Shown here in pieces: positions 575 to 37,437 of a stretch of 64,000 nt of DNA; position 1 is the first letter of the stretch, and each line of letters starts with the position of its first letter. The stretch comes from Pyrinomonadaceae bacterium (GTDB lineage Bacteria; Acidobacteriota; Blastocatellia; Pyrinomonadales; Pyrinomonadaceae). Below the pieces are notes generated by a model. That model did no database searches and had not been told where the DNA came from. It saw nothing but the letters and a program-made list of their open reading frames with translations. The stretch is from the NCBI GenBank assembly GCA_047600985.1, contig JASGKA010000001.1:288105-352104 (forward strand), read 5' to 3'. The position numbers were made by a program, and so were the translations under genes.

Positions 575-1117
575 CTATTGTTTTAATGAGATCTTTAATC
601 TGTAATCGCCGCTCGTTGCACCGTTCGGTCCGGCAACGGCAAGCATCAGCGTGTATGCGTTTGTGGTCGAGTTGAATGTGATCGAGCGGGCGTCGGTCTG
701 AACACGGTCCTTTTTCGGATAGTCCCATTTATGCTCAGCTTCGCAGGTAACGGCTGAACTCAGGCTGTCAGGCAAAGTGTGCTTGCCGGAAGCGATCTGA
801 TAGCCGTAGATGCTCAGGTTCGTCCCCGACCGAACCGGTTCGACCGTCACGGTCACGATCGAACGCGGCGGCATATCGACGGTGTAAAAAACATGATTCC
901 CGGTAAATTTCGCTTGCTGCGTAGCTGGAAAACACGCGATCGAACTGTTCCAGGCGAACGAGAGATCGCTGAGCTTGCTGCCTTCGCTAAGATTTCCGGT
1001 TACGGTGGAAGTGAGGCCGGGTTTTATAACGACGCTGTTTACGGTGCGTTCGGTTTGGGCGCTTATGACTAAGCTTCCGATCAGTACGAACGAAATTAGT
1101 AAGATCAATTGCTTCAT
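575..1117 (-). CDS. secreted hypothetical protein (Sec signal peptide)
   Basis: ORF-track 180 aa. N-terminus MKQLILLISFVLIGSLVISAQTE is a typical signal peptide. Tightly packed with neighbouring minus-strand genes. Confidence 0.5.
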   Translation of the reverse strand: MKQLILLISFVLIGSLVISAQTERTVNSVVIKPGLTSTVTGNLSEGSKLSDLSFAWNSSIACFPATQQAKFTGNHVFYTVDMPPRSIVTVTVEPVRSGTNLSIYGYQIASGKHTLPDSLSSAVTCEAEHKWDYPKKDRVQTDARSITFNSTTNAYTLMLAVAGPNGATSGDYRLKISLKQ

Positions 1118-1692
1118 GATCCAGACTCCTTGGGCATTTTCGCGGTAAATTTGCCCTCGATGTTGTCCTCGCCATCGATAAAATGCACTTCGCCTTCGAT
1201 CACATCTTCTTTAACAGAGGTGATATTTACCCAAGACTCCTTGGTTGCTCCGAGCCTCGCGAACTGTTCCTCACCCGAGTCGCCGAAATAATAAACGCGA
1301 TACGAACCAAGTTCGAGTCCGGGCGTAATATCCTTCTCCGCAGCAAATGGCGAGCTGTAGACGCCCTCACGCAGTTTTGTACCAAAGCCTTGATCCAGAT
1401 CGATCGCTATCACTGAGAATTTGATCTTCTTCTGCTCTTTCGACGTTAGCGTCGGACCATATCGCTCGTCTTGCCCGCTATCGAGCTTCATATCAAAATT
1501 GCTGAGGAAAAAGTTGTAGAAAACCGCATCGTGCCCGCGATACGTGGCTTTCGACGCGGGTTTGATCACGCCATGTGTCGCCGTGAACGCGTCGGTCTTC
1601 TTCTCGATATTCATCTTGATATCGCCCGACGGTGCACAGCCAAAACCGAGCAGCGAAGCGAAAATTAACACGATCAATAGATATGCTTTCAT
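1114..1692 (-). CDS. lipoprotein, hypothetical
   Basis: 192 aa. MKAYLLIVLIFASLLGFGCAPSG has a lipobox-like LGFGC motif. 4-nt overlap with the downstream gene. Confidence 0.5.
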   Translation of the reverse strand: MKAYLLIVLIFASLLGFGCAPSGDIKMNIEKKTDAFTATHGVIKPASKATYRGHDAVFYNFFLSNFDMKLDSGQDERYGPTLTSKEQKKIKFSVIAIDLDQGFGTKLREGVYSSPFAAEKDITPGLELGSYRVYYFGDSGEEQFARLGATKESWVNITSVKEDVIEGEVHFIDGEDNIEGKFTAKMPKESGS

Positions 1693-1695
1693 TTC

Positions 1696-2166
1696 TCACC
1701 TCTTTAGATCTGTCAAAATACAATTCTTGATAGACACCCGATCCGGGCTGTAGCTCGATTTTGTGTACTGGCCTTTGACCGTTACGGTCGGCGATTGATG
1801 CTTGTATCGCAGGTCGTCGATACGTGTTTTCATGCTCTGATATTCAGAAAAACTGCCGGTGCAGTAGAATCCGCCGTTTATATCGCTGATCCGCAGGCTG
1901 TCGTACTCGATCGCCTCGAGCTTGCCGCCCGTGACGGTGACGATGCGGCCTTCGTCTTCTTTCTTGTAATTCAGCCCGACGACGTCGTATGCGGACATCG
2001 TCGTCGGTTCCAAGACCGGAACCGGAGTTTCAGCTTCTTTTGTCACGGCCGTGCGATTCGACGTGTTTAACGAGCTAGAATTAGCGTTATTCGCCGAATT
2101 TGAACTGACGCCGCCGCAAGCGCACATCGTAATAGCGGCCAAAGTGATAATTAATTTCGTTTTCAT
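1696..2166 (-). CDS. lipoprotein, hypothetical
   Basis: 156 aa. MKTKLIITLAAITMCACGG signal plus Cys, followed by a low-complexity N/S-rich linker. Confidence 0.5.
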   Translation of the reverse strand: MKTKLIITLAAITMCACGGVSSNSANNANSSSLNTSNRTAVTKEAETPVPVLEPTTMSAYDVVGLNYKKEDEGRIVTVTGGKLEAIEYDSLRISDINGGFYCTGSFSEYQSMKTRIDDLRYKHQSPTVTVKGQYTKSSYSPDRVSIKNCILTDLKR

Positions 2167-2181
2167 ATATTCTCTCCCGCC

Positions 2182-2403
2182 TCAATTTTGACTAGTTTTC
2201 TTACCCCTCAGCATCACAAATGCGGCTATGGCCGTAACAACGAGCCCGATAAATCCGAACAGCAGCGACGGAATGATTCCCACCATCGCTTCCTTCATGT
2301 ACACGCGGTTGTTCGTCATCGACGGCAGCATCAAAAAGATGACGAGAGCGATACCGGAGAGCAGCGTGAGGCCGATTCCTGCTAGTAATCCTGCGATCTT
2401 CAT
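2182..2403 (-). CDS. small two-TM membrane protein
   Basis: 73 aa with two hydrophobic helices (LLAGIGLTLLSGIALVIFLML and IIPSLLFGFIGLVVTAIAAFVML). Confidence 0.4.
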   Translation of the reverse strand: MKIAGLLAGIGLTLLSGIALVIFLMLPSMTNNRVYMKEAMVGIIPSLLFGFIGLVVTAIAAFVMLRGKKTSQN

Positions 2404-2422
2404 TTTTATTTCTCCTCTTTAG

Positions 2423-3610
2423 TTATGGACATGGAATAAAGCGTCCGCCGATGGTCAGAAAATCAAGCTTCGCGGCTCCGCCGGGCGGTTTGAAGAAATT
2501 GAACTCGCGGGCCTGACAATCCGGGCGGCCTTCGACCTTTGCGATCACATATCCGCCGCGAAGGCTCGTGCCCTTACCGACCTTGTAGTAGTCGTATTTC
2601 GAATCGCTGCCTTTATAGGTATAGCTGCTTGAGGTCGACCAGGACGTGTTCCTGAAAACAATCCGAAGTATCTGGATCTTCGACGCGTTTGGCAGTTTGA
2701 CGTATCCTGCCCGTATCGTCTTTTCAAGCACGGGATCCTTGGCCGTGCCGGGCTGAAAGCTCGTGCTGGACATGGTTTGTCGTATGCGATCTTTAGTCTT
2801 AACGATGAGCTTTTCGTACTCCTTCCAGTAGAGATCGATCCAGGTCGGTGGCACCGGCACACCACGTTTCGCGAATTCGGCCGTGATCTCGTTCGCGACT
2901 TTTTGACGAAACTGCGGCGTCTCAAACACCATCTCCTGAAATCTGTCGGGTATTTGATTATCCGCGCCACCAAAATCCGAATAATCGGCCTGAATGTCCT
3001 TACCGATCAACCCGGTGGTGTCATAAATTATCCCGTCCACAACGACCTGCATTCCCTGCATCTTGGTATGGACCGGGTCGGCTGCAAGTGCGCAATATCC
3101 ATTCGAGTAGCCAGCAAAATAGTTCGGTTTGTATTTCGGCTCGGGGAATGGGCCGTATTTCTTGCAGAGTTGATCGACCGCCTGCAGGTCTGACAAGATT
3201 TGAGTCCAAGCTTCCTCGGAAGACGGGATCGGATAGGTGCTGCCCGAGACCCAAACCATCTTGAAATCATAGGCCTTGCTCAAAAGCTGAATCGAACGCA
3301 TATATGGCCCGATCTCCTTCTGGAAAGTCTGCTCATTCTTCTTGCCGTTCAGGAACCGCTCGTGGGCTTTCTCGCTCTGGATAATGCGGGCTGGTCCGGC
3401 CATGATGCCCTCCTTGTACCCGTTTGATCGCACTACCTGAAACATCGGCAGATTGATAGAGGCGATGCGGACGAGTGTCCACTCGTTCTCGTAGCCGTAA
3501 TAGACAACGTCATTGACCTTGAACGAAGTGAGTGGCTCAACCTGAGTTTGAGCGAATGAACTCACGACAGCCAAAACAAGTAACCCAACGATAAGAATTG
3601 CTTTCTTCAT
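2423..3610 (-). CDS. secreted hypothetical protein
   Basis: 395 aa. MKKAILIVGLLVLAVVSSFAQTQ signal peptide. Strong SD (AAGGAGG) 7 nt upstream of the ATG at 3610. Confidence 0.55.
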   Translation of the reverse strand: MKKAILIVGLLVLAVVSSFAQTQVEPLTSFKVNDVVYYGYENEWTLVRIASINLPMFQVVRSNGYKEGIMAGPARIIQSEKAHERFLNGKKNEQTFQKEIGPYMRSIQLLSKAYDFKMVWVSGSTYPIPSSEEAWTQILSDLQAVDQLCKKYGPFPEPKYKPNYFAGYSNGYCALAADPVHTKMQGMQVVVDGIIYDTTGLIGKDIQADYSDFGGADNQIPDRFQEMVFETPQFRQKVANEITAEFAKRGVPVPPTWIDLYWKEYEKLIVKTKDRIRQTMSSTSFQPGTAKDPVLEKTIRAGYVKLPNASKIQILRIVFRNTSWSTSSSYTYKGSDSKYDYYKVGKGTSLRGGYVIAKVEGRPDCQAREFNFFKPPGGAAKLDFLTIGGRFIPCP

Positions 3611-3664
3611 TTTTGATCCTCCTTAGCTCTTCACCTGTATGTGAAGGTTTGGACCAAACATTTC

Positions 3665-3703
3665 AAAAAAAATGACGAGGACTTAAAAAAGTCTTCGTCA
3701 TCA
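3665..3703 (-). terminator. rho-independent terminator downstream of the anti-sigma gene
   Basis: On the minus strand: CCTGATGACGAAGACT-TTTTT-AAGTCCTCGTCA hairpin (one G-U pair) followed immediately by a T8 run. Confidence 0.5.
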
Positions 3704-3734: not shown

Positions 3735-4637
3735 TCATCGATTTACGTTGAATTGTGCGTCCGCCGCAGATTCGTTTTCGCCTGCATTATTTACACCATA
3801 TGCGCGGACAATATAGTCGCCTGGTGAGAGGTTTTTTGCCGGTGAACTGAAATTCAGACGGCCGCCCCGAGGCGCGATGGTAGCTGAACGATAGACGATC
3901 TTTCCCGCTCCATCCTCGATCTCGACGCGATAATTCCTGTAATCCGTGGAACGCAACGGCAGCGTGAAATTAACGCTTTTCGTGTTTTCACCTACTTTTA
4001 CTGTCGGATTAGATCCTCCAGAACGAACCAGGCCCGGCGAGAGAATTACGGCAGCGATAATGCTGTGCTGTTCGGGCGGCGGCCTATTGTCTGTATTTGC
4101 CGGCGTCGGCGTCGGTGTTTTTGCGGGTGGTTTGTTGCCGTTCACATCGATCGGAGCGGTCGGGATCGGACTCGGCAACTCGGTCGGCGTTGTTTCTGTT
4201 TGCTTTACGATATCGACCTGAGGTTTCCTCAATACCAGGAACCAGACGCCGATAATAACAGCGACCAACAGAGCGGCGGCAACAGCCAATTGCGGCAATT
4301 GAAGCGCAGCTATCAGCTTCGCCAAAAAGCCAGGCGAAACTTCGGGCAATTGTGTGGCCGGACGGTTGAGGTCAAATTCCGCAAGCATCGCGCGATGCAG
4401 ATCGAGACGCTCGCACCGCGTCTGGCTCGTGTTAGCAGCCTCGAATTTCTTTGCCTCTGCCGCTGACAAATTGCCTCGCAAGTATTCCTCAGTCAGCTCA
4501 TCATCGACGACACGGACCGCCTCGAATAGCTCCGCGTCGCCCTCAACGATCTGCTGTTCAAAGGCCTCGTGTTCCTCGCTCGGCATTTCACCTAGCAGGA
4601 ATCTGCGAATTTTGTTGTCGTCAATTTCCATCATCAT
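3735..4637 (-). CDS. putative anti-sigma factor (single-pass membrane; periplasmic C-terminal domain)
   Basis: 300 aa immediately downstream of the ECF sigma gene. Cytoplasmic acidic helical N-domain, one TM (LAVAAALLVAVIIGVWFLVL), a Pro/Thr-rich linker and a ~150-aa C-terminal domain. Confidence 0.5.
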   Translation of the reverse strand: MMMEIDDNKIRRFLLGEMPSEEHEAFEQQIVEGDAELFEAVRVVDDELTEEYLRGNLSAAEAKKFEAANTSQTRCERLDLHRAMLAEFDLNRPATQLPEVSPGFLAKLIAALQLPQLAVAAALLVAVIIGVWFLVLRKPQVDIVKQTETTPTELPSPIPTAPIDVNGNKPPAKTPTPTPANTDNRPPPEQHSIIAAVILSPGLVRSGGSNPTVKVGENTKSVNFTLPLRSTDYRNYRVEIEDGAGKIVYRSATIAPRGGRLNFSSPAKNLSPGDYIVRAYGVNNAGENESAADAQFNVNR

Positions 4638-4687
4638 CGCCGTAAATTACCGGCTTCATCTGTATGTGCAAAAATCGCGTATTCGTT

Positions 4688-5236
4688 TCATTTCGAGCAT
4701 CGGCGAATGCACGATTCGAGAGCGGACCGCAGCCGACACGCCCGGATCCGGAGCGTATTGACTGAAACCTTTAGCTCGTCTGCGATAGCTTTTCGGATAT
4801 CCTGTCGCCGCCCGTTGTCCTCGTCGTGATACCTGACGAGCAAAGCTCGGTCTTCCTCATCCATGCGGGTCATGCACTCGGTGAGGCAGTCCAGTCTTTT
4901 CTCTTTCTCACTATCGATCGAACTATCCGGAACGACAAAGTTATCGCTCTCGTCCTCGATCGTCACGTTCTGGCGTGATGGGTCGCGATAATGCTCCAGC
5001 CTGACGAAATTCGCGATGCCAAATGCGTATGCCCTGATATTTTCAATACCTTCGTCGGTCTCGAGTTTGTTCTGCACCCGCTCAAAAACAGCATCGGCCA
5101 ACTCGTCGCAGTCGTCACAGTTACGCCATTCGAAATATTTGATCAGTTTCGCCCGCAGAAGTTCGTACTCACGGCCCGCAGCATCGCGGTCGTTCGGGTC
5201 GAGCATGGAAAGCAGTGTTTCGAAACTAGTAGTCAC
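4688..5236 (-). CDS. ECF-type RNA polymerase sigma-70 factor
   Basis: 182 aa. Region-2-like N-part and region-4 HTH (ELKVSVNTLRIRACRLRSAL). 20 nt downstream of the CHAT gene. Confidence 0.7.
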   Translation of the reverse strand: MTTSFETLLSMLDPNDRDAAGREYELLRAKLIKYFEWRNCDDCDELADAVFERVQNKLETDEGIENIRAYAFGIANFVRLEHYRDPSRQNVTIEDESDNFVVPDSSIDSEKEKRLDCLTECMTRMDEEDRALLVRYHDEDNGRRQDIRKAIADELKVSVNTLRIRACRLRSALESCIRRCSK

Positions 5237-5256
5237 TCAGCGTCTGCGTGGTCGGA

Positions 5257-8200
5257 TCACAGTTCTCCCTGAATAATAAATCCTGCCCAGTAGTACGGAG
5301 AGCGATAACGCGGGATCTTTCTGAGTTCACTCTGAGCCGACCGAAGTGCGGTCGCGGGCGGCATCTTGTTCTGCAGCATGTTTCGGTAGAAGACCTTCAT
5401 GAATTCAGCGGTCGCGGCGTCGTCCACCTTCCAAAGGCTTGAAACTACCCGCCGCGCACCGGCAAACATAAATCCACGCGTCAGGCCGATCAAACCTTCG
5501 CCGCGAATATCCTTGCCAAGAGCGGTCTGACACGCGCTCAGAACGACGAGGTCGCTATTCAGCTTTAAATTGTATATCTGACCGAGCCTCATCACGCCGT
5601 CCTTCGGTTTCCCGTCGCTGCCGTAGAGTGAAAGCACGAGACCGGAAAACTCCGGATTTGTCGTATCGAGCAATCCATGCGTCGCGAAATGAACAATGCG
5701 GTATTGCGTGAGATCATGGCCGATCACATTGTCACGATTCGCTTCGAAATCGACATTGACCTCAGCCTTCCCGTCCTGAACGAACGCCGCGATATTCCTC
5801 GCCTCGACCCGCGATGAAAGCAGCCTCGGAAGTCCCTCGGTCAGGTTAACGTCGCGGAGAAGCCGTCGGGTGGACGTGGGCGTCGTTTCAAATGTAACGT
5901 TTGCCGCTTTTAGTCTGACGTCATCCTTCGCAAAAACAGCGTCCGCAAAAACTGCGAGTGTTTTCGCCGCCGGTTTCACGTTGTCCGTTTTCGAACGAAG
6001 TTCGCTGAGGACGCTCGCCGATGGAAGTGAGACGATCTCTTTCGGACCCGCGTTCTCAGCGAGCAAGGCGAAAGGTAGAAATTGAAGGATTCCGTCTGCA
6101 ACCACAACCAGCTTTTTGCCCTTGATCGCAGTAGATGCTGGTCCGAGAATTTTTTTACTGACATCTTGCTTAAGAGCATCTATCTTCGGCTCATTGTTCG
6201 TGCTATTCGCGACAAGTCCGTCGTAAAGCTCTTTTGCTTTTGTATCGATCTCAGCACGCGGGCCGAGTTCGACGACCGAAACATCTTTGTTAGTCACGAT
6301 CCATAGAAAACTCTGTTCGTCGCCGAGTTTGTATTCGAGCAAAACAGTATCTGAACCGATCAGGCTTTGGGTTTTTGAAACCGTAAAGTTCTCCGGGCTA
6401 ACGAGATCCGCGTATCTGCGATTTTGGCCATGGATCTTCTGCTTGACCGCCGTCAGTTGATCGTCGATGCCCAAGATCTCCTGCTTCAGCTCTTTCGCGC
6501 GATCTTCCGAATACTTTCCGGCCAGCATCTGCGATAGCTGACGGGACCGTCCCGTGACAAGCTCGGTCAACCGCCGTTCTTCGGCAACCAGAGTCGGATC
6601 GATCTTATCGGCGATCTCGACCCGTGCCTGCTGCAACAGCTCGATCAAAACGCGAGCCCGCGAGCGTTCGCTGATCTCGTATGCGGCTGATATCGAGCTT
6701 TGGTTCTTCTCTGATAAGGTCAGTTCGATCAGGAGCTGATAATATTGCTGCACCGATGCAAAATACGAGGCTCTTAGCCGTTGATCCGGTATCGTCCCTC
6801 GAAACTTTTCGACGAGAGCTATCGCGGCTTCGACACTCCGCTTCGCCTCATCAGCACGTTTCAGATCTCTGAGAGCTCGTGCCTTTCGATAAAGCAGTAA
6901 TGCCTCCTGATTTTTGTCCTCGAGGCGGTGCCAGATCTCTGCGGAACTCGCAAATCGGTCGAGAGCCGCAGCTTTGTCACCATTCTGGTCGGCGATCTGA
7001 CCGAGACTCGCGAGGTTTGACGCTTCGTCGCGTCGATTTTCGACTTCGCGATTTAGGGCTAATGCCTGTCCTAGAAGATCTGAAGCCGCTTTCAGGTCTC
7101 CTTTTTTCCGTTCGATAGATGCGAGGCGGCCGAGGGTTGTCGCCTTAGAGGTCTTGTCTTTCAACTCTTCAGCGATCTTCAGGGAATCCCGGTAATAGGT
7201 AGCGGCCTTTTCGAGTTCGCCTTTCGCCTCAAATAGCGATCCGATGTTGCCCAAAACCGCACCTTCGCGGCGGCGTTCAGAATTGGCGCGGCGAAGCTTG
7301 AGCGATTCTTCGTAGTACTTTAATCCTTTCTCATCGTCGCCGAGCGTATGGTAGAGCAACCCAAGGTTATTGAGGCTCGAACCTTCTGCACCGCTCTTTA
7401 TCTCACGGTCCATCGCGATCGATCTTTCGTAAAGCTCAAGAGCTTTGTCGATCTCGCCTAGACGATCGTATGCACCGGCGATCGTGCCGGTGATGAGAGC
7501 GACGGCTTTCTTGTTGCCCTCCGCTTCTCGGACGACGAGAGCTTTTTCGTATAGACCGAGCGCCGTACGGACATCGCCGCTGGTGTGAAATGCGGTGCCC
7601 ATATTGAAGTAAACCCACGCAATTCCGTCCTGGTCGTTGGTTTTCTTGTAATACTCAAGAGCCTGCTCGTAATACTCGCGAGCTTTTGCGGGCTGACTGC
7701 TGTTGGCGTACACCAGACCGATGTTGCCGATCACTGTGGTTTCCGTGTAGTGATCACCGAGTTCACGATAGATGTCGCGAGCTTTGGAATAATACCCAAT
7801 TGCCTTTTCCGAATCCCCGACCCAATCGGCCACAAGCCCGAGGTTATTTGTGGCTCCTGCTTCGAGTGTCCGATCATGCGTCTCGCGTGCAATTGCGAAG
7901 GCTTTCTCAAAATTTTCCGTCGAGCCCTTCAGATCGCTAAGGTTGTAGTAGGTAAGGCCGATCTGATTTATTAAAAAACCCTGTTTGCTCTTAAATCCCA
8001 AAGATTCAGCGATCTTCAGGCTTTCGGCATATTGTGTCAGCGCTTTTCGCGAGTCGCCGAGAGAGCGAAGTCCTGACGCAAGGTATTCGTAGGCAAGGCT
8101 TTCCCAATACTTATCCTGCTTAACACGCGAAAGCGGAATGATCGCTTCGAATTTCGCGAGAGCCGCTTGCTTTGCTGCCGCACCTTCTTTCCTGAGCTTC

Positions 8201-8664
8201 AGTCCCTCTTCGTAAAGAGCGAAGATCTTTGTAGCCGCATCATTGATCGCTTTGTCTTCAGCGGTAGTTGGACGGATCTCGATCAACTTTATCGCGTAGC
8301 CGGCAGTATCCTTTTCGGAGGTCGAGATCCAAGTGTCCAATCGGTAACGCCCATCTTTCGCTGCTGTCAGGCGGTGGCGGTCGGTGTCATAAAACCCGTT
8401 TGGAATATCAAAATCAACGAAAGCGTCCTTTGCGTCGGGCTCGTATGCCTCGGCCTGTATGTCCGCTCCTTTCTGAACTACTTCGACAACGGCAGTTTCG
8501 CCCGCTTTTAGGTCGATGTAAAAGGACTGCGTTTCCTTTTCCTTGATCTGTTTTTCAACGCCGTTTCCAACTGTGAGTATGGTTTGCTGAGCCTGCAGCG
8601 ATGCGGTCGCCGCAAAACAGAGAACAAAGGTCGAAGCTACGCGAAAAATGGCCGCTCTTGTCAT
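5257..8664 (-). CDS. secreted TPR-repeat protein with C-terminal CHAT (caspase-like) protease domain
   Basis: ORF runs to 8781, but the likely start is the ATG at 8664 (MTRAAIFRVASTFVLCFAATASLQA is a signal peptide). Multiple TPR units in the middle (...YYSKARDIYRELGD..., ...ALELYERSIAMDRE...). C-terminus carries the CHAT His (IVHFATHG) and Cys (VVLSACQTALG) dyad motifs. Confidence 0.8.
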   Translation of the reverse strand: MTRAAIFRVASTFVLCFAATASLQAQQTILTVGNGVEKQIKEKETQSFYIDLKAGETAVVEVVQKGADIQAEAYEPDAKDAFVDFDIPNGFYDTDRHRLTAAKDGRYRLDTWISTSEKDTAGYAIKLIEIRPTTAEDKAINDAATKIFALYEEGLKLRKEGAAAKQAALAKFEAIIPLSRVKQDKYWESLAYEYLASGLRSLGDSRKALTQYAESLKIAESLGFKSKQGFLINQIGLTYYNLSDLKGSTENFEKAFAIARETHDRTLEAGATNNLGLVADWVGDSEKAIGYYSKARDIYRELGDHYTETTVIGNIGLVYANSSQPAKAREYYEQALEYYKKTNDQDGIAWVYFNMGTAFHTSGDVRTALGLYEKALVVREAEGNKKAVALITGTIAGAYDRLGEIDKALELYERSIAMDREIKSGAEGSSLNNLGLLYHTLGDDEKGLKYYEESLKLRRANSERRREGAVLGNIGSLFEAKGELEKAATYYRDSLKIAEELKDKTSKATTLGRLASIERKKGDLKAASDLLGQALALNREVENRRDEASNLASLGQIADQNGDKAAALDRFASSAEIWHRLEDKNQEALLLYRKARALRDLKRADEAKRSVEAAIALVEKFRGTIPDQRLRASYFASVQQYYQLLIELTLSEKNQSSISAAYEISERSRARVLIELLQQARVEIADKIDPTLVAEERRLTELVTGRSRQLSQMLAGKYSEDRAKELKQEILGIDDQLTAVKQKIHGQNRRYADLVSPENFTVSKTQSLIGSDTVLLEYKLGDEQSFLWIVTNKDVSVVELGPRAEIDTKAKELYDGLVANSTNNEPKIDALKQDVSKKILGPASTAIKGKKLVVVADGILQFLPFALLAENAGPKEIVSLPSASVLSELRSKTDNVKPAAKTLAVFADAVFAKDDVRLKAANVTFETTPTSTRRLLRDVNLTEGLPRLLSSRVEARNIAAFVQDGKAEVNVDFEANRDNVIGHDLTQYRIVHFATHGLLDTTNPEFSGLVLSLYGSDGKPKDGVMRLGQIYNLKLNSDLVVLSACQTALGKDIRGEGLIGLTRGFMFAGARRVVSSLWKVDDAATAEFMKVFYRNMLQNKMPPATALRSAQSELRKIPRYRSPYYWAGFIIQGEL

Positions 8665-8731
8665 ATGGAACGGGCTGATTTTAGCAGAGAACCTATTGTG
8701 ATTGAAAGAGTTTTTAGCTTTCGCTGGCGGA

Positions 8732-9790
8732 TCAGAACAGCGAAAGCTGCTCAACTTGAGGCACTGCTTCCACATCCACATTGTCGTTTCGCATCGACCT
8801 CACATTAAAACCGAGCCGCTTAGCGTGAAAATCGAACAGCTTTTGAGTAACTTCCCACTGCTCTGTTTTGCCGATTCCGCGTTCTTTGTAAGTTCTATGA
8901 CGAAGCGTTCCGCCACGCTCGCGTTTCATGGTATTAACGATCTTCGCAACACGCGTCGGCGGCAAACGCTCGTGCATTTTTTCGACAAAGTACGATTCGA
9001 TCGAATCGGTATCGAGATGCAGCAGCGACATAAATGCGCGAGTTGCTCCAGATTCTTTCGCACGTTCGAGCAGGCCCGGAATATCCGATTCGTTATAACC
9101 CGGAATGATCGGCGCAATCCCGATACCGACCGTGATCCCTGCATCCGCGATCGTCCTCATCGCCCGGAAACGAGCCTCCGGTACAGCCGTGTATGGCTCG
9201 AAAGGGTTTGATCGCTCCTTTGTAAGAAATGGAAGTGAGAAAAACACCGTCACCTTTTGGAGCCTCTTTAGCAGGTCGATATCGCGCGTCACAAGCGGTG
9301 CTTTAGTAATAACGCCAACCGGTACCTGAAACTCTACGCAGACCTCAAGACATTTCCGCGTCAGCTCGTAACTCGCCTCGAGCGGCAGATATGGATCGGT
9401 CGCAAATGAAAAATCGAGATGCGGCATCTTGTCTCGGGTCCTTTTGAGTTCCTGACGAAGCAATTCGGGAGCGTTAGGCTTCACAACGATCTTTGTCTCA
9501 AAATCCGTTCCGGCCCCGTAACCCAAATATTCGTGATACTGTCGTGCAAAACAGTACGTGCAGCCATGAACGCAGCCGCGATAGCAATTGACCGTATAAC
9601 GCCAACCGCCTTCCCAGTCCGAAGCAAACGCCTTCGTTATCATTTTTTTGGTCGCTAATTCCTCGAAAACCTCGAGCTTTGTTGGCGGCGGTTCACCGAC
9701 GTATTCGGATGTGTATTTGTTGTAGGGATTCGGTGGGTTAATAATTTGTCGCACATGTGCAACAATAATGCATAGGCAAAAGAATCGCAA
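8732..9790 (-). CDS. radical SAM protein, SplB / DNA-repair-photolyase-like (COG1533 family)
   Basis: CVHGCTYC is a CX3CX2C cluster. N-terminal NPPNPYNKY resembles the SNPxNRF motif of this family. 352 aa. Confidence 0.65.
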   Translation of the reverse strand: MRFFCLCIIVAHVRQIINPPNPYNKYTSEYVGEPPPTKLEVFEELATKKMITKAFASDWEGGWRYTVNCYRGCVHGCTYCFARQYHEYLGYGAGTDFETKIVVKPNAPELLRQELKRTRDKMPHLDFSFATDPYLPLEASYELTRKCLEVCVEFQVPVGVITKAPLVTRDIDLLKRLQKVTVFFSLPFLTKERSNPFEPYTAVPEARFRAMRTIADAGITVGIGIAPIIPGYNESDIPGLLERAKESGATRAFMSLLHLDTDSIESYFVEKMHERLPPTRVAKIVNTMKRERGGTLRHRTYKERGIGKTEQWEVTQKLFDFHAKRLGFNVRSMRNDNVDVEAVPQVEQLSLF

Positions 9791-10325: not shown

Positions 10326-11219
10326 TTAGGAAGAGTAAGTCTGGTCGGACAGCGTATCAACGCGCGACGTCAACCGAACGCGCAGAACGTTGGCGACCTC
10401 GCCGACGATCGAGTCTTGCAAAGCAAAGATATTCGACGCATCGTCGTCAAACGTTTTCGCCCAGATGATGCGTGCGTCATCGACATCGACCATCTCGACC
10501 GTGATACGAATGCGGTTCTCCGCTCGCTGGACCGAGCCCGTCACGATCGAGTCCACATTCAGTTCACGGCCAGCCGCCATCACATCGCGATCGGCAATCG
10601 ATGCCGAACCCGGCCGAACTGTCAGATCTGCAACACTACCGAGCCGTGCACGCAGAGTTTCACTGATCCCTTGCCCAATAAACTCATCACCGCGATCAGA
10701 TCTGAATTGAAGGACCGCAAGGCTCTGCTGTGAATTCCCAGCGACCGCATTCTTCAAGGCGGAAACAAAGAATGGTGAGCAGAAAGCGACTATATAAAGG
10801 ATAGCGATCGTAACGCCGGTTCGTCGGGCTCTATCAATTTCGGCAGCGTAGGTGAAGACTCTTGATCGGGCCGACGGCTTCCTCGTCGTTTCAACAGCAG
10901 CCAACTTTCGAACCGGAATAACGAAACTATATCCTTTGCCGGGAATGGTTACGATGAATTCGGCGTTACCGAACGTCTTTCTAAGCGTCGATATTTGCTG
11001 ATTGAGATTATTTCCCTCGACAACCGTATCGCTCCAAACCGCCTCGATCAAAGCCTCGCGTGTCAACGTTTTGCCGGAGTTTTTGAGAAGTATTGTCAGC
11101 GTATCAAACGCTTTTGAACTCAGCGGAAGCGATTCATCGCCGCAATACAGCCTCCTGGCTAGAGTATCGACTCTGAAGGAGCCAAACTCATAAATTGTAT
11201 CTGCTGAGCTGTTGTCCAT
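10326..11219 (-). CDS. CadC/ToxR-like one-component transcriptional regulator (winged-helix OmpR/PhoB-type DNA-binding domain, TM, periplasmic domain)
   Basis: YEFGSFRVDTLARRLYCGDESLPLSSKAFDTLTILLKNSGKTLTREALIEAVWSDTVVEGNNLNQQISTLRK is a trans_reg_C wHTH. TM helix IAILYIVAFCSPFFVSAL. The ORF runs to 11393, but the internal ATG at 11219 is preferred because the upstream ORF 11270..11623 would otherwise overlap. Confidence 0.6.
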   Translation of the reverse strand: MDNSSADTIYEFGSFRVDTLARRLYCGDESLPLSSKAFDTLTILLKNSGKTLTREALIEAVWSDTVVEGNNLNQQISTLRKTFGNAEFIVTIPGKGYSFVIPVRKLAAVETTRKPSARSRVFTYAAEIDRARRTGVTIAILYIVAFCSPFFVSALKNAVAGNSQQSLAVLQFRSDRGDEFIGQGISETLRARLGSVADLTVRPGSASIADRDVMAAGRELNVDSIVTGSVQRAENRIRITVEMVDVDDARIIWAKTFDDDASNIFALQDSIVGEVANVLRVRLTSRVDTLSDQTYSS

Positions 11220-11269
11220 GTGAATGAGGCGATTATATAGCAGTTTGCGGCGAGACGACAAGAAATTCG

Positions 11270-11623
11270 TTAAACTCGATCTAGAAAATTCTCTAGAACA
11301 AACACCTTTCTCAGCCTTAGGCGAACCGGCGTCTGGACGAGTGCGGCTGCTTTCAGGCTTTCGAAGCCTGACATGAAAAATGGTTCTTTGCAAGACGGAA
11401 TTTGGTCGAGCCAGGATGGAATATTCAAATGCATCTCATCGCATAAAGTCTCGATCACTCCAGCCAAAACGGCGTCGCGCTTTTCATCGTCCGTCTCGAA
11501 AGGCGTTGCTACTGCACTGAGGTCACGATGTCGTCGGAAATCATCAACGAAATCAAAAAGAGCTACCTTCCACCATTCCGGATCTTCGCGAAATCTCTGT
11601 TTTGTTTCAACGCAGCTTATCAT
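11270..11623 (-). CDS. hypothetical protein
   Basis: 117-aa ORF filling the gap between the VWA and CadC-like genes. No recognisable motif. Confidence 0.35.
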   Translation of the reverse strand: MISCVETKQRFREDPEWWKVALFDFVDDFRRHRDLSAVATPFETDDEKRDAVLAGVIETLCDEMHLNIPSWLDQIPSCKEPFFMSGFESLKAAALVQTPVRLRLRKVFVLENFLDRV

Positions 11624-16680: not shown

Positions 16681-18456
16681 ATGAACAGCAGCTTTTCATT
16701 CGGCAATTTTCACATTAACGGAGGCGAGCGATTGCTCTATGACGGTAGTACGCCAGTTACACTTCCGCCAAAGATCTTCGACACGCTCCTGATGCTGGTT
16801 CAGAACGCCGGACACGTGCTTAGCAAAGAAAAAATGCTTGCCGAGATATGGGAAGATAGTTTTGTCGAGGAAAATAATCTAGCTCAAAACATCTCGCATC
16901 TTCGCCGTGTTTTAGGCGAAACACAGCAGGTCAAGTTTATCGAGACGGTACCGAAATTCGGATACCGTTTTGTAGCGACGGTGGATTCGCTACCGCAAAG
17001 TATTGAATCTGCGGTCACGCACGAGGTGATCGAGCGAACAAGTGCTCGGATCTACGTCGATGATGGTTCCGAGCCTATCGAATTAGAACCCGCGACGCCC
17101 GAACCACGAGCGTTACCAAAACGTCGCCCGGAAACTCATTACGTCCAGAATGGCGAGGTCAATATTGCCTATCAGATCGTTGGTGACGGCCCGATCGATA
17201 TTGTTTTCGTGATGGGTTGGATCTCGCACCTTGAGTATTTCTGGAAGCATCACCTTTTCTCCACTTTCCTCGAACGCCTCGCTTCCTTTTCACGGCTGAT
17301 CCTATTTGATAAGCGCGGAACGGGGCTGTCTGATCGCATGCCGATCTCGGCCCTTCCTACACTCGAAGAGCGGATGGACGATGTTCGAGCCGTAATGGAC
17401 GCGGTCGGGTCAGAACGTGCTGTTCTCTTCGGTGTTTCGGAAGGCGGACCAATGTGTTCGCTATTTGCTGCGACATATCCCGAACGAACAAGTGCGGTCG
17501 TAATGTTCGGCACTTATGCGAAACGAATAAAGGACGATGACTATCCATGGGCACCGACGATCGAGCAGCGAAATAAGTTCTTCGACATTGTCCGAAGCGA
17601 TTGGGGAACTCCGGTCGGGATCGAGGAACGAGCACCGTCGATGGCAAACGATCCAGAGTTTCGCGACTGGTGGGCTGAGTATCTGCGAATGGGTGCCAGC
17701 CCGGGTGCGGCCGTCGCCCTTACAAAGATGAATTCAGAGATCGATGTCAGGAATGTCCTGCCGCTCGTTCGCGTTCCGACGCTTGTGATGCATCGGCAGG
17801 ACGACATGTGCCTCAAGGTCGAAGAAGGCCGTTTTGTTGCGGGGCAAATTCCCGGAGCAAAATACGTCGAGATGAACGGCGTCGATCATCTGCCCTTCGT
17901 AGGTGATCAGGATGCGGTTCTGGACGAGATCGAAGAATTTGTGACTGGCGTCCGGTTTGCCGGTGAATACGACCGCGTGCTCGCAACCGTGATGCACGTT
18001 AAGATCGTCGATCATATTGATGAAGCAACGCGTCGTGGCCGAGCCGATTGGGAACGGCTATTTCAACGTTCAGGCGACTACATTCGTCGACAGCTCAGTC
18101 TATTCAAGGGCAAACACGTGTCATACGACGAAACCGGCGTCCTGGCGGCATTCGACGGCCCCGCACGCGCGATCAGGTGTGCAGCGGCTATAACGCAATC
18201 CGCAAACCGGCTCGGCGTTCAAGTCAAAACCGGTCTTCACACCGGCGAGTGCGACGTTATCGGTGATTCATACGGCGGTTTTGCCGTCGCACTTGCGAAA
18301 GAGATCGCGGGCGAATCGCCGGAGGGCAGCATTCTGGTCTCGCGAACAGTAAAAGACCTCGTCGCTGGCTCGGGACTAGAGTTTTCCGAAGTCAGCAAGA
18401 GAGCCTTCGACGGCGTCGATGGTGAATGGCGACTATTTCGAGTGGAAGGCCTTTAA
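16681..18456 (+). CDS. multidomain one-component regulator: CadC-type wHTH DNA-binding domain + alpha/beta-hydrolase fold + class III nucleotidyl cyclase homology domain
   Basis: N-terminal LLYDGSTPVTLPPKIFDTLLMLVQNAGHVLSKEKMLAEIWEDSFVEENNLAQNISHLRRVLGE is a wHTH. Middle: NIAYQIVGDGPIDIVFVMGWISH...GVSEGGPM is an alpha/beta-hydrolase nucleophile-elbow-like region. C-terminal GLHTGECDVIGDSYGGFAVALAKEIA is a cyclase homology domain. Confidence 0.7.
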   Translation: MNSSFSFGNFHINGGERLLYDGSTPVTLPPKIFDTLLMLVQNAGHVLSKEKMLAEIWEDSFVEENNLAQNISHLRRVLGETQQVKFIETVPKFGYRFVATVDSLPQSIESAVTHEVIERTSARIYVDDGSEPIELEPATPEPRALPKRRPETHYVQNGEVNIAYQIVGDGPIDIVFVMGWISHLEYFWKHHLFSTFLERLASFSRLILFDKRGTGLSDRMPISALPTLEERMDDVRAVMDAVGSERAVLFGVSEGGPMCSLFAATYPERTSAVVMFGTYAKRIKDDDYPWAPTIEQRNKFFDIVRSDWGTPVGIEERAPSMANDPEFRDWWAEYLRMGASPGAAVALTKMNSEIDVRNVLPLVRVPTLVMHRQDDMCLKVEEGRFVAGQIPGAKYVEMNGVDHLPFVGDQDAVLDEIEEFVTGVRFAGEYDRVLATVMHVKIVDHIDEATRRGRADWERLFQRSGDYIRRQLSLFKGKHVSYDETGVLAAFDGPARAIRCAAAITQSANRLGVQVKTGLHTGECDVIGDSYGGFAVALAKEIAGESPEGSILVSRTVKDLVAGSGLEFSEVSKRAFDGVDGEWRLFRVEGL

Positions 18457-21896: not shown

Positions 21897-23756
21897 ATGC
21901 GGAGCGAAATTCAAGAACAGGTGTATTTCAAATTTGGTGACTTCCAGCTTAGACCGGAAATGCGGTCGCTGCTTAATCTCGACGAGCCTGTTCATCTTGC
22001 CAAACGCCCGTTTGACATACTTCTGCATCTGGCAGAAAACCGTGATCGCGTTGTAACACGTGACGAGTTGATCGAAAAGTTCTGGGACGGACACGAGGTT
22101 TACGACGACGCTCTCAGAAAAACCATCAGTACGATCCGTCATGCGTTGAATGACACCTCTCCGCCCTGGCGGTACATCGGAACGGTACGCGGCAGTGGGT
22201 TTCGCTTCGTTGCCGAGATCAAAGAGACACATACCGGAACCTCGCCAACGGCGCTAGTCGATCATCGTCAAATACCGCGACGCGTCGGTTCACGAGCCGT
22301 CCTTTTGGTCACGCTTTTTTTGATCGTGATACTCTCCGCAAGCTTTGCGGTAAACCGATATCTGGGTGGAAACGTTAAAAGCTCCGCTCGATCGAAACCG
22401 AGCGTTACTGCGATCGCCGTTTTGCCGATACGCAATCTGACCGGTGATTCGGGTAATGACTACCTTTCGGACGGAATTAGTGAAGGGCTTATCAGCGAGA
22501 TCTCACGAAACAGCACGCTCAAAGTCATCTCGCGAAGTTCAAGTTTCTCGTTCCGAAATTCGGACGCGAACCCGAGCGAGATCGCCTCAAAGCTGGGCGT
22601 CGACGGCATCGTCGAAGGAAGTCTGAAAAAGGCGGGAAACGACCTTCGGTTAGACGTAACTTTGGTGTCGGGCACCAACGGCGAAGTGCTTTGGACGAAC
22701 GATTCGGCAAAAAATTTAATTGCAAACGTCTTTAACCTACAATCTGAGATCGCGTGCAGGTTGCTGGTCAGTGTAGATGCAGGCCGATGTTCTCAAACCG
22801 AGACACCGAAAAATGTCGATCCAGAAGCATATCGACTCTATTTGAAGGCCGTTCAAATGCGGAAAGACCTTTCTGCCGAAGGTTTGCGGAAAGCAGCCGA
22901 GATCTATATCGATTCGATCCGCATCGATCCGGACTTTGCCGCAACCCATGAAGCGTTAGCTACCGTTTATCTGATAATGGAGTCAAATTCCGCGGTTCCA
23001 CCTGGTTCCGTTATCCAAAAAGCTGAGGAGCAGGCAAACGAAGCGCTTCGGTTGGACGAATCTTCGGTTGACGCTCTGCTTGTTTTAAGCGAGACAAAAA
23101 CTGCCAAGAATTATGACCTGCAAATGCGGGAAATGTTGCTTCGGCAGGCAGTCGAGCGAAATCCGAATCATGTTCGAGCTCGTATGTGGCTTGCAAACAC
23201 ACTAACAGTCAGAGCAAAATTCGCGGAAGCGGAAAGCCAGCTTTTAGTCGCTCAGCAACTCGATCCCCTATCGCAGGGTGTCAGGATCAACCTATTTGAG
23301 TTATATCAATATTGGCGAAGGCCGGAAAAGGCCGCTGAGCAGGCCGATCTTTTGCTAAGTCTCGATCCGGACAATACATCTGGGTTGTGGATGAACGCGA
23401 AGTTGTTGCTTGATGCGGGCGAAACCACTAAGGCGAAGGAATTGTGGGATCGCCTTCCGGAAAGCGATAGGATAGATACGGAGATAGAATTTATACTGAG
23501 AAATGTTCACGGCGACGAGGCACGCAGAGCAGTAGACAAATTATCGCGAACGGATAAGGGGAAAACGTCGCCATTTTTTATCGGATGCGCATACGCTCGT
23601 ATCAATGATCGTGACGATGCGTTCGTTTGGTTTGAACGGGCGTACACGATGCGGCAATCTGACCTCGTATCACTGAAGATCGATCCTGCCCTGGATCTCG
23701 TCAGAGATGATCCGCGATATTTTGATCTGTTAAGGCGGATGCATTTAGATCAATAA
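21897..23756 (+). CDS. CadC-like transcriptional regulator with TM helix, periplasmic TolB-N-like domain and TPR repeats
   Basis: wHTH (FKFGDFQLRPEMRSLLNLDEPVHLAKRPFDILLHLAENRDRVVTRDELIEKFWDG...). TM AVLLVTLFLIVILSASFAV. C-terminal TPR-like helices. 619 aa. Confidence 0.7.
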   Translation: MRSEIQEQVYFKFGDFQLRPEMRSLLNLDEPVHLAKRPFDILLHLAENRDRVVTRDELIEKFWDGHEVYDDALRKTISTIRHALNDTSPPWRYIGTVRGSGFRFVAEIKETHTGTSPTALVDHRQIPRRVGSRAVLLVTLFLIVILSASFAVNRYLGGNVKSSARSKPSVTAIAVLPIRNLTGDSGNDYLSDGISEGLISEISRNSTLKVISRSSSFSFRNSDANPSEIASKLGVDGIVEGSLKKAGNDLRLDVTLVSGTNGEVLWTNDSAKNLIANVFNLQSEIACRLLVSVDAGRCSQTETPKNVDPEAYRLYLKAVQMRKDLSAEGLRKAAEIYIDSIRIDPDFAATHEALATVYLIMESNSAVPPGSVIQKAEEQANEALRLDESSVDALLVLSETKTAKNYDLQMREMLLRQAVERNPNHVRARMWLANTLTVRAKFAEAESQLLVAQQLDPLSQGVRINLFELYQYWRRPEKAAEQADLLLSLDPDNTSGLWMNAKLLLDAGETTKAKELWDRLPESDRIDTEIEFILRNVHGDEARRAVDKLSRTDKGKTSPFFIGCAYARINDRDDAFVWFERAYTMRQSDLVSLKIDPALDLVRDDPRYFDLLRRMHLDQ

Positions 23757-36453: not shown

Positions 36454-37437
36454 ATGAGCGACTACAGAGAGAGATTTGAACGTTGGCAGAAAAAGGCTAC
36501 TGAGAAGTTTGAGGAGATCGATGCGCAGCTCGGGCTGAAGGACAAGATCGAGGGCGGCGCTCGCGTCGTTGTCGACACCGCCCGCACCGGAGCCGAGCGG
36601 ATCAAAACCGAAGCCGAAAAGACCGATGTCGGTAAACGTGCCGTCAAAGTCGCTGAAGATGTGGTCGAAACAGCGGCCGGAACTGCAAAAACGGCCTGGA
36701 ATGTGAGCGAACCGCTTCGCGACGTCGCTGCCGATGCCGGATCAAAAGCCGGCGGCGTCGTTGTCGATGCTGCGGGAAAAGCCGGCGAGTTCATCGACGA
36801 CGCGGTCGAGTCAGTTGGGTCGAATGCCAAACGCGTGTCTAAGGTTGTCGGTTTTGGTGCGGGATTGTCGTCAACGCTCGATTCGGCTTTGAGATCGGCA
36901 AAGAAAGCTTCGGAATGGGTGCAGGCCGATCCGCTCCGGGCAGCGACGACCGGAGTCTCGATGGCGATCGGTGCAGGACTTGGCGTAGTTTTTACCGGGA
37001 TCAGCTCGCATTGGCTTTTGAATTCTGCAATTCCGGCGTATTCCGTCAAAAAGATCGCTCAGGAATTCGACGCCTACCTCGGGCGTCGCGAAGAAATGAT
37101 CGCCAAAGGCCATCTGTCGGATGCCGACGCCGAACGCGTCGCTTTTGAACGTGATATTGCAAAACGCATCGGAGCACCATTGCTCGGCGCATTCTCGTTC
37201 GCGTCGGGAGCCGTGATGATGAGCAATGTTCTGAATCCGGTCGCCGTGACCGGATTCCCGCTCGGCAATATTATCGGCGGAAATCCGCTGCTCGAAGGCG
37301 TCTGGTTCTTTGGTAACGGAATGGTCTGTTTCAAGACGAGCTACGATTTCTTTATGATCGCCCTCGACGGACAGGAAGATGTGGAGAAGATGGTGAACGA
37401 GATAAAAGGATTGCTGCCGTCAACGTCCGCTAGTTGA
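36454..37437 (+). CDS. hypothetical protein
   Basis: ORF-track 36418..37437. Start moved to the ATG at 36454 (MSDYRERFERWQKK). Ala/Gly-rich, no recognisable domain. Confidence 0.4.
   Translation: MSDYRERFERWQKKATEKFEEIDAQLGLKDKIEGGARVVVDTARTGAERIKTEAEKTDVGKRAVKVAEDVVETAAGTAKTAWNVSEPLRDVAADAGSKAGGVVVDAAGKAGEFIDDAVESVGSNAKRVSKVVGFGAGLSSTLDSALRSAKKASEWVQADPLRAATTGVSMAIGAGLGVVFTGISSHWLLNSAIPAYSVKKIAQEFDAYLGRREEMIAKGHLSDADAERVAFERDIAKRIGAPLLGAFSFASGAVMMSNVLNPVAVTGFPLGNIIGGNPLLEGVWFFGNGMVCFKTSYDFFMIALDGQEDVEKMVNEIKGLLPSTSAS

Follow-up and report, generated by a model that had tools for sequence, protein, structure and literature searches.

A predicted exported TPR-CHAT protease as the conserved neighbour of a divergent sigma factor and its membrane anti-sigma factor in Acidobacteriota

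Why should a caspase-like protease with a putative export signal be encoded directly beside a sigma factor and an anti-sigma factor that is bound to the membrane? The question is raised by three genes that lie in series on the minus strand of a 64,000-nt stretch of DNA (hereafter the window, meaning the whole of the stretch analysed) from a metagenome-assembled genome (MAG) of a soil Pyrinomonadaceae bacterium (Acidobacteriota, class Blastocatellia). In the direction of transcription they encode a protein with tetratricopeptide repeats (TPR) and a CHAT domain, a sigma factor of the extracytoplasmic function (ECF) type and an anti-sigma factor. The two intergenic gaps measure 20 nt and 50 nt, in agreement with an earlier note on this DNA that had described three adjacent minus-strand genes spaced by 20–50 nt, and had taken the protease to act as site-1 protease on the anti-sigma factor in an uncharacterised envelope signalling cascade. 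The open reading frames (ORFs) are as follows.

5257..8664, minus strand: TPR-CHAT gene, an ORF for 1,135 aa, stop included, with its ATG at 8664
4688..5236, minus strand: sigma gene, an ORF for 182 aa with a GTG start, the same as the NCBI gene call (P0001)
3735..4637, minus strand: anti-sigma gene, an ORF for 300 aa; the NCBI start lies two codons later (P0011)

The reading frame of the CHAT gene is open to 8781, and an extension beyond the ATG at 8664 would overlap the radical SAM gene that lies upstream. NCBI entry MFT3742919.1 ('CHAT domain-containing protein [Pyrinomonadaceae bacterium]') matches the 1,135-aa product exactly, and NCBI annotates the sigma and anti-sigma products of the same MAG, on a 1.44-Mb contig, as 'hypothetical proteins'.

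The trio is a conserved three-part module of Acidobacteriota, composed of an exported TPR-CHAT protein, a divergent sigma factor and a membrane anti-sigma factor. Its neighbourhood was surveyed from both ends. From the sigma side, one genome of each species was scanned, which gave 44 loci with sigma identities of 30–48%, nearly all in MAGs of Acidobacteriota (a few MAGs are oddly binned) and spanning Pyrinomonadaceae/Blastocatellia, Thermoanaerobaculia, Vicinamibacterales and Terriglobales. A TPR-CHAT ORF is present in 35 of these loci, directly upstream on the same strand in 31 and elsewhere in the locus in 4; six of the nine loci without one are contigs with less than 2.3 kb of upstream sequence. 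In 39 of the 44 loci the gene directly downstream of the sigma gene encodes an anti-sigma homologue; of the other five loci, four are truncated by the end of a contig. Starting from the protease, the best 80 metagenomic CHAT-domain relatives (45–60% identity) gave 72 informative loci, with the sigma gene directly downstream in 31 and a sigma or an anti-sigma gene elsewhere in the locus in a further 10. The recurrent linkage for which a neighbourhood survey had been suggested is thus seen from either starting point (35/44 sigma loci and 41/72 CHAT loci), and the same trio appears in independent gene calls with precomputed Pfam annotation.

Linked CHAT domains also cluster together. Nearest-neighbour concordance between linked and unlinked domains (n = 113) was 85/113, against 59.8 ± 6.2 in 2,000 label shuffles with a maximum of 82, and the 13 nearest relatives of the window's CHAT domain are all sigma-linked. 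The gene order varies among the surveyed loci (numbered here with the prefix L): in L007 and L079 the CHAT gene comes behind the anti-sigma gene, L125 and L031 have it in divergent and L042 in convergent orientation, and a divergently transcribed CHAT gene is found at 24% anti-sigma identity. In L127 it lies 5 kb downstream, beyond seven genes for secreted proteins of unknown function. At L120:949-5364 a Pfam-positive canonical ECF/zf-HC2 pair stands directly upstream of a close CHAT relative, so that the CHAT link extends beyond the divergent sigma family. No fourth gene shows broad conservation: the ORFs downstream of the anti-sigma gene cluster only in patchy groups of 2–5 loci, and the trio is therefore the unit. 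The confinement of the loci to one phylum, apart from the oddly binned MAGs, is what would be expected if the adjacency were synteny inherited in one lineage without functional meaning. However, the linkage persists at 24–48% protein identity across several acidobacterial classes, survives the changes of gene order and strand, and is seen with a different ECF pair in L120; inherited synteny is effectively excluded.

Some loci carry elaborations of this arrangement. Two tandem TPR-CHAT genes precede one sigma gene in some metagenomic loci among L049, L050, L054 and L074, and L074 holds two sigma/anti-sigma pairs within 5 kb, which indicates that the module multiplies locally. A SARP/AfsR-like STAND regulator (Trans_reg_C + NB-ARC + TPR) is encoded directly upstream of the sigma gene at L005:5388-7895 and L008:5306-7879, in L005 between the sigma gene and a CHAT gene ~4 kb further upstream. 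At L127:7034-12043 and L128:7045-12165 the sigma/anti-sigma pair is followed by about seven secreted-protein genes, with the CHAT gene after them in L127. One secreted protein of this subclade carries a Peptidase_S74 (endosialidase chaperone) domain, and a gene for a 443-aa secreted protein of the set is found again immediately behind the anti-sigma gene in L128, L024, L010 and L046.

Is the protease likely to be active, and where? The features of the TPR-CHAT protein that bear on this are listed below.

5266..6147, minus strand: CHAT caspase-like domain, residues 840-1133 (Pfam PF12770, E 3.4e-63)
5679-5677 and 5532-5530, minus strand: catalytic His996 and Cys1045, the dyad of the CHAT domain
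6685..8067, minus strand: TPR array, residues ~200-660 (Pfam TPR_12, TPR_1, TPR_2 and TPR_MalT)
8140..8586, minus strand: N-terminal domain of the mature protein, residues ~27-175, without a Pfam match
8590..8664, minus strand: predicted Sec signal peptide, residues 1-25, read from the sequence, with likely cleavage between LQA and QQ

The CHAT domain (clan CD, caspase-like) scores 214 bits against a Pfam cut-off of 24 bits, and TPR_12 matches six stretches of the protein, whose TPR array also draws PDB sequence matches to TPR proteins. Both catalytic residues had been reported as retained, and they are: the motifs HFATHG and LSACQT lie at residues 992-997 and 1042-1047, and H996 (within ATHG/THG) and C1045 (within SACQT) never vary in an alignment of 35 sigma-linked CHAT homologues. 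Since the dyad is invariant, catalysis matters. The earlier identification of a secreted 1,135-aa TPR-CHAT protein likewise stands, its export part being heuristic. The N-terminus, MTRAAIFRVASTFVLCFAATASLQA followed by QQ, has the layout of a Sec signal peptide, in which a hydrophobic core lies between a basic start and a small-x-small site, and contains no lipobox; a comparable hydrophobic N-terminus is found in nearly all full-length homologues. Export is accordingly a well-founded prediction, and it is well supported at the sequence level that the exported protein keeps a functional-looking caspase-type His/Cys dyad. The N-terminal domain (residues ~27-175) looks by eye like a PPC-type (pre-peptidase C-terminal) beta domain; it is kept in the closest homologues (E 1e-18 to 1e-27) and missing from several linked ones.

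The second gene had been described as encoding an ECF sigma factor. Its 182-aa product falls below the curated cut-offs of Pfam, with 13.7 bits for Sigma70_r2 (E 0.055; cut-off 24) and 16 bits for Sigma70_r4_2 (E 0.0096; cut-off 25.7), and of NCBIfam, with 30.5 bits for TIGR02937 (E 2.4e-7; cut-off 42.9). Alignment profiles were built for the sigma factor (A1, 10 members), the anti-sigma factor (A2), the CHAT domain (A3) and the anti-sigma N-domain with its transmembrane helix (A4); in sequence searches of the PDB, neither the single sigma sequence nor A1 matched a sigma factor. The TIGR02989 alignment covers residues 38-177 with E 1.6e-15, below its cut-off, and the NCBIfam type III-E sigma model gives only E 4e-4 against a 100-bit cut-off. 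The AlphaFold2 model (mean pLDDT, the predicted local distance difference test score, 77.5) comprises four helices, a disordered linker and four helices. The top ~17 Foldseek PDB matches of this model are almost all full-length ECF sigma factors (SigL, sigmaE, AlgU, SigH), followed by other sigma-70-family factors, with probabilities of at most 0.98 and weak E-values (0.01–0.2). The architecture is that of sigma2 plus sigma4 in ~180 aa, without regions 1.1 or 3. On account of the TIGR02989 alignment, the 4+4 helices of the model and the Foldseek matches, the protein is placed with the ECF-type sigma factors, and as modelled it is a very divergent member; the earlier description holds as to type, but the protein is far more divergent than it implied. 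Six cysteines are conserved in the A1 alignment, which is unusual: C40, C117, C121 and C167 are invariant, C176 and C180 occur in at least 90% of members, and CxxxC pairs fall in sigma4. They may give the sigma factor a metal or redox site of its own; its partner anti-sigma factor is without the usual zinc ligands.

For the anti-sigma factor, the following features are predicted.

Residues 1-~95, minus strand: cytoplasmic zf-HC2-class domain (AlphaFold2 and profile matches)
4295-4230, minus strand: transmembrane helix, residues 115-136 (AlphaFold2)
4229-4062, minus strand: disordered P/T-rich linker, residues 137-192 (AlphaFold2)
4061-3738, minus strand: Ig/FN3-like domain, residues 193-300 (AlphaFold2, fold searches)
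4023..4025, minus strand: codon of Arg205, in the motif L-x-P-G-[LT]-[VL]-R-[SDG]-x-G; a speculative candidate cleavage site

In the AlphaFold2 model a helical N-domain (residues 7-90, pLDDT ~80–87) precedes the transmembrane helix, and the disordered linker leads to a confidently predicted beta-sandwich (residues 193-299), which fold searches identify as a generic Ig/FN3/MG-like fold. That the protein spans the inner membrane once is well supported by the model, whose single transmembrane helix leaves a periplasmic part of ~164 residues and so bears out the single-pass protein with a ~150-aa periplasmic domain that had been described. The zf-HC2 model is sub-threshold on the single sequence (E 0.0089), and 7 of 12 homologues match it (best E 7.9e-5). 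Profile A4 retrieves 152 proteins, the best at E 1e-40, of which many have PF13490 or bear the name RsiW or RskA; because of these N-domain matches the anti-sigma assignment is supported by homology as well as by position. A sequence search of the PDB with the anti-sigma profile gave no informative match. The H-x3-C-x2-C zinc motif is absent, no N-domain Cys or His being conserved in A2, in A4 or in an alignment of 158 diverse family representatives, so that the N-domain would be a non-zinc anti-sigma domain. This cytoplasmic domain presumably holds the divergent sigma factor.

The anti-sigma family is very large. An exhaustive profile search of 1.84 billion cluster representatives (50% identity) returned 14,697 clusters at E ≤1e-3, 9,988 at ≤1e-10 and 3,252 at ≤1e-30, and the best 150 relatives are almost all full-length, at ~245–375 aa. 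The linker after the transmembrane helix is of low complexity and varies in length (median 68 residues, range 33–98). Arg205 is the sole fully invariant residue (158 of the 158 representatives), and the residue after it is S, D or G. It lies at the start of the Ig-like domain, where residues 202-208 are the only stretch of that domain with pLDDT below 50. With a variable disordered linker and an invariant Arg in a flexible loop, the anti-sigma factor looks like a substrate of regulated proteolysis.

When anti-sigma factors undergo canonical regulated intramembrane proteolysis (DegS-RseA-RseP; Prc/CtpA in cell-surface signalling), the periplasmic part is trimmed before an M50 protease acts, and the present anti-sigma factor is similarly a single-pass protein with a periplasmic part to be trimmed. 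The known site-1 proteases belong to the serine proteases or the signal peptidases, and their genes do not normally lie beside the sigma/anti-sigma pair, whereas here a cysteine protease of clan CD is the conserved neighbour. By analogy, we tentatively favour an envelope signalling module in which the TPR-CHAT protein, acting in trans, would cleave the anti-sigma factor in its periplasmic part and thereby free the sigma factor. The TPR array, together with the N-terminal beta domain where present, would sense a periplasmic protein or peptide cue that allosterically switches on the CHAT domain. This domain would then act in trans on the anti-sigma factor's periplasmic part, cutting it most likely after Arg205, at the Ig-like domain's base, or else within the linker. 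The truncated anti-sigma factor would become a substrate of an intramembrane site-2 protease and then of cytoplasmic proteases, and the released sigma factor would drive a regulon, for which the patchily recurring secreted proteins encoded beside the module are candidates.

We infer the site-1-protease role from genomic context and analogy. The context comprises a linkage observed from both directions and kept through rearrangement, the invariant dyad and the conserved export signals, and the window also holds a gene for an M50 intramembrane protease. The strongest outside support appears to be the precedent of a fusion. DdvA of Myxococcus xanthus unites a transmembrane anti-sigma factor and a periplasmic TPR-CHAT part in one protein; the CHAT domain of DdvA has been proposed as the protein's own site-1 protease ahead of RseP, and removing or truncating the TPR-CHAT domain exposes DdvA to RseP (PMC11506125). 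As for the site of cleavage, HetF of Anabaena, also a TPR-associated CHAT protease, cuts a specific regulator, PatU3, after Arg, between R117 and S118, and family C50 of clan CD prefers Arg (PMC9457339); the candidate site here would be R205 followed by S, D or G. Unlike the protease of the present module, HetF is membrane-anchored with a cytoplasmic CHAT domain, and its substrate is an inhibitor of cell division and differentiation and not an anti-sigma factor. Craspases, on the other hand, cut after Leu or Met, so that Arg205 is a lead and not a rule. The most specific form of the proposal, in which a soluble periplasmic TPR-CHAT protease switches on a very large acidobacterial family of ECF-like pairs by cutting in trans after the invariant Arg, is to us slightly less probable than cleavage as such.

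A number of points weigh against cleavage in trans by the TPR-CHAT protein. Both the cleavage of the anti-sigma factor and its contact with the CHAT protein are things that we infer, and the DdvA model is itself unproven: dyad mutants are without phenotype in unperturbed cells, and the trigger is not known (PMC11506125). Profile A3 finds no PDB chain by sequence, DdvA and Csx29 included, so that the analogy rests on architecture and not on close homology. In 31 of the 72 loci of the protease-first survey (~43%), the flanks of these closest CHAT relatives lack this sigma/anti-sigma family, from which it follows that this CHAT clade also works in other contexts. Arg205 could be merely structural. 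The M50 site-2 protease gene that the earlier note placed at 37430-38464 is confirmed (Pfam 8.3e-19; the product has HExxH and NxxPxxxLDG motifs), but it lies 29 kb from the module and Pfam detects no PDZ domain in its product; for these reasons it says nothing specific about this cascade.

The transcriptional arrangement adds to these points and bears on a different role for the protease. The unit ends in the following element.

3663..3702, minus strand: intrinsic terminator, with a hairpin at 3702-3671 and a U8 tract at 3670-3663

Folding energies were compared with those of 200 shuffles. The hairpin, which had been placed at 3665-3703, is confirmed (dG -15.6 kcal/mol, z -5.3; 0/200 shuffles fold equally well); its stem has one mismatch, for which reason a simple scanner overlooked it. 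The 20-nt junction between the CHAT and sigma genes of the window holds no significant structure (z -0.5), and a single transcript of all three genes is therefore the simplest reading for this genome. Across 31 loci the distance from the CHAT stop to the sigma start has a median of ~104 nt (range 8–199), and the window's closest relatives have strong terminator-like hairpins there. These are long and perfect in L001 (1069-1210), L002, L004, L009, L010, L013, L023 and L045; the L001 hairpin has a 29-bp stem (dG -51 kcal/mol, z -10.6) followed by a U-run, and a sigma-70-like promoter scoring 10/12 lies just ahead of the L001 sigma gene. The CHAT gene is therefore not always in the sigma operon. 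The description of the genes as co-operonic applies to the window and fails for these close relatives, and the conserved feature is the neighbourhood, not always a shared transcript.

Nor was a conserved ECF-type promoter found upstream of the CHAT genes or in the CHAT-sigma spacers. In 27–28 CHAT upstream regions, an exact dyad count reached a maximum of 4 against 3–4 in shuffled controls, and a Gibbs sampler gave an information content of ~12 bits against ~10.7 bits; the CHAT-sigma intergenic regions, with their coding part masked, yielded no common ECF-type promoter. A strong bipartite TGGGC-N16-GGCG pattern upstream of sigma genes (26 of 79 sequences) was rejected as a promoter, as it is coding sequence for the conserved CHAT C-terminus (YWAGF..QGEW). 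Upstream of the window's CHAT gene, an 11-bp inverted repeat, AGCTTTCGCTG-N11-CAGCGAAAGCT (8718-8750, minus strand), overlaps the stop codon of the radical SAM gene, and a weak sigma-70-like TTTCAA-N18-TGcTAAAAT was seen by eye just before the CHAT start (8665-8715, minus strand). Such a promoter would make the CHAT mRNA nearly leaderless, and no Shine-Dalgarno sequence is evident.

These observations cut both ways for the possibility that the protease is an output of the system, the Ig-like domain sensing by other means and the freed sigma factor raising the CHAT protease against a target in the periplasm or outside the cell, for instance foreign proteins, structures of the surface or the secreted proteins encoded nearby. 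The position of the CHAT gene at the head of the window's transcription unit could equally well reflect such a role, ECF regulons usually include adjoining genes while no other neighbour is conserved here, and the many close CHAT relatives without the pair must have substrates other than this anti-sigma factor. However, the CHAT genes share no ECF-type promoter, a hairpin and a sigma-70-like promoter separate CHAT from sigma in close relatives, and the DdvA fusion argues for a physical coupling of TPR-CHAT and anti-sigma factor and not for a relation of regulator and target. An output role would also leave the invariant Arg and the disordered linker of the anti-sigma factor unexplained. We consider it unlikely, if still a serious contender.

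The TPR-CHAT protein might instead be a periplasmic co-sensor or partner for which the anti-sigma factor is no substrate, either docking on the Ig-like domain in the manner of RseB and being titrated away by a ligand, or processing a third protein or peptide whose product is sensed by the anti-sigma factor. TPR arrays serve as scaffolds for protein binding, docking could be the function of the conserved Ig-like domain, and the conserved linkage is equally compatible with such a partnership. The invariant dyad, in contrast, means that catalysis is needed for something, and no third conserved partner gene accompanies the module; we regard a co-sensor role as slightly less likely again than an output role.

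How does the module, read as a site for cleavage in trans, compare with known systems? The closest resemblance is to DdvA-DdvS (PMC11506125, PMC6061681). In both, the sigma factor is of the ECF type, the anti-sigma factor crosses the membrane once and has a zf-HC2-class cytoplasmic domain and a flexible periplasmic linker, and a periplasmic TPR-CHAT part carries a His/Cys dyad; in both, too, the proposed logic is CHAT as site-1 and M50 as site-2 protease. The differences are that TPR-CHAT is here a separate protein with a signal peptide, so that cleavage would occur in trans and not by autoproteolysis within a dimer; that the anti-sigma factor carries a small Ig-like domain instead; that its N-domain lacks conserved Cys/His zinc ligands, whereas that of DdvA is CHCC zinc-bound; and that the host belongs to Acidobacteriota and not to Myxococcota, with no adjacent CBASS or CRISPR island. 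DdvA-like fusions have been reported in Myxococcota and one Comamonas species only. No CHAT-fused form occurs among the 120 listed N-domain relatives or the best 150 full-length relatives, none of which exceeds 375 aa, and profiles A1, A2 and A3 match no DdvA or DdvS PDB chain at E ≤1–10, assuming that 8RW5 and 8RLZ are in the PDB copy searched. Judged by sequence, the module is not a member of the DdvA family, being unfused and without detectable homology to it; by analogy, the locus would be a split, trans-acting counterpart of the mechanism proposed for DdvA.

In Craspase, gRAMP/Cas7-11 acts with Csx29, a TPR-CHAT protease that cleaves Csx30 and frees an RpoE-like sigma factor (PMC10028731). 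A TPR-CHAT gene is here too coupled to an ECF-type sigma factor and its inhibitor, and sigma release by proteolysis is proposed. Craspase, however, is cytoplasmic and responds to RNA-guided target binding, whereas the present protease is predicted to be exported and the inhibitor is a membrane anti-sigma factor, and the locus has no CRISPR array, gRAMP, Csx30 or Csx31. The module is not a type III-E system. CHAT-domain genes recurrently adjoin ECF sigma genes also in ECF54 of Actinobacteria, whose conserved gene context includes CHAT, subtilase and carboxypeptidase proteins and for which proteolytic control has been proposed (PMC8999054, PMC7826278); ECF54 belongs to another phylum and has no recognisable anti-sigma factor, unlike the module described here. 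The cascade is thus less uncharacterised than had been stated, as the same mechanism was already proposed for DdvA (PMC11506125) and the CHAT context noted for ECF54 (PMC8999054). In the literature covered, with most subscription journals outside the search, we found no description of a separate exported TPR-CHAT protein conserved beside a transmembrane anti-sigma/ECF pair, nor of this acidobacterial family.

By analogy with DdvA-DdvS, with Craspase and with the type III-B CHAT cascades that control sigma factors, the module may serve as an alarm for phages or other invaders that turns on defence genes elsewhere, a suggestion about role that overlaps the mechanism of cleavage in trans. The STAND NTPase regulator inserted in the module in L005 and L008, and the phage-tailspike-type Peptidase_S74 protein near one locus, would fit such a role. 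PADLOC, however, returned nothing beyond a generic TPR match on the locus, and the window holds no CRISPR array or defence genes; the module's neighbours are housekeeping or regulatory genes, and a very large family with several copies per locus fits general environmental sensing better. An alarm of this kind appears improbable.

The window as a whole contains no CRISPR-like or tandem array, no Rfam match and no ORF of at least 1,000 aa besides the CHAT gene, in keeping with the earlier statement that no CRISPR/gRAMP lies nearby. Genes for a radical SAM protein, a GNAT acetyltransferase, a CadC-like membrane regulator, a VWA protein and an acyl-CoA dehydrogenase neighbour the module. The upstream radical SAM gene (8732-9790) was considered as a part of it and rejected, not being conserved beside the module in other loci. 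Past the terminator, four signal-peptide- or lipoprotein-like genes of unknown function (395, 156, 192 and 180 aa) occupy 575-3610 on the minus strand. The 180-aa protein is 49% identical to the product of an ORF ~1 kb downstream of the anti-sigma gene in L005, and weaker relatives of the 395- and 192-aa proteins are encoded downstream in L023 and L024; the four small secreted proteins are possible members of the regulon. Three further genes have Trans_reg_C (OmpR/CadC-type) N-domains, at 10326-11393 (minus strand), 16681-18456 (plus strand) and 21897-23756 (plus strand). Their C-terminal parts differ (TolB_N/FlgO-like, alpha/beta hydrolase and TPR), and they form a cluster of ToxR/CadC-like one-component regulators.

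CHAT proteases have lately been tied to the control of sigma factors in CRISPR type III-E and III-B systems and in DdvA of Myxococcus. In the present module the enzyme and its candidate substrate are separate, which suits a simple in vitro test with the protease, the 164-residue periplasmic fragment and a predicted P1 Arg. If cleavage in trans is true, the TPR-CHAT protein would be the first clan CD site-1 protease, and the system would offer the first direct demonstration of a mechanism that has only been hypothesised for DdvA. The occurrence of split and fused versions in two phyla would then show the coupling of TPR-CHAT and anti-sigma factor to be a recurrent design. The sigma/anti-sigma family escapes current annotation, the sigma factor falling below the Pfam and NCBIfam cut-offs and both proteins being called 'hypothetical', and ECF censuses may thus miss a sizeable part of the signal transduction of soil Acidobacteriota.

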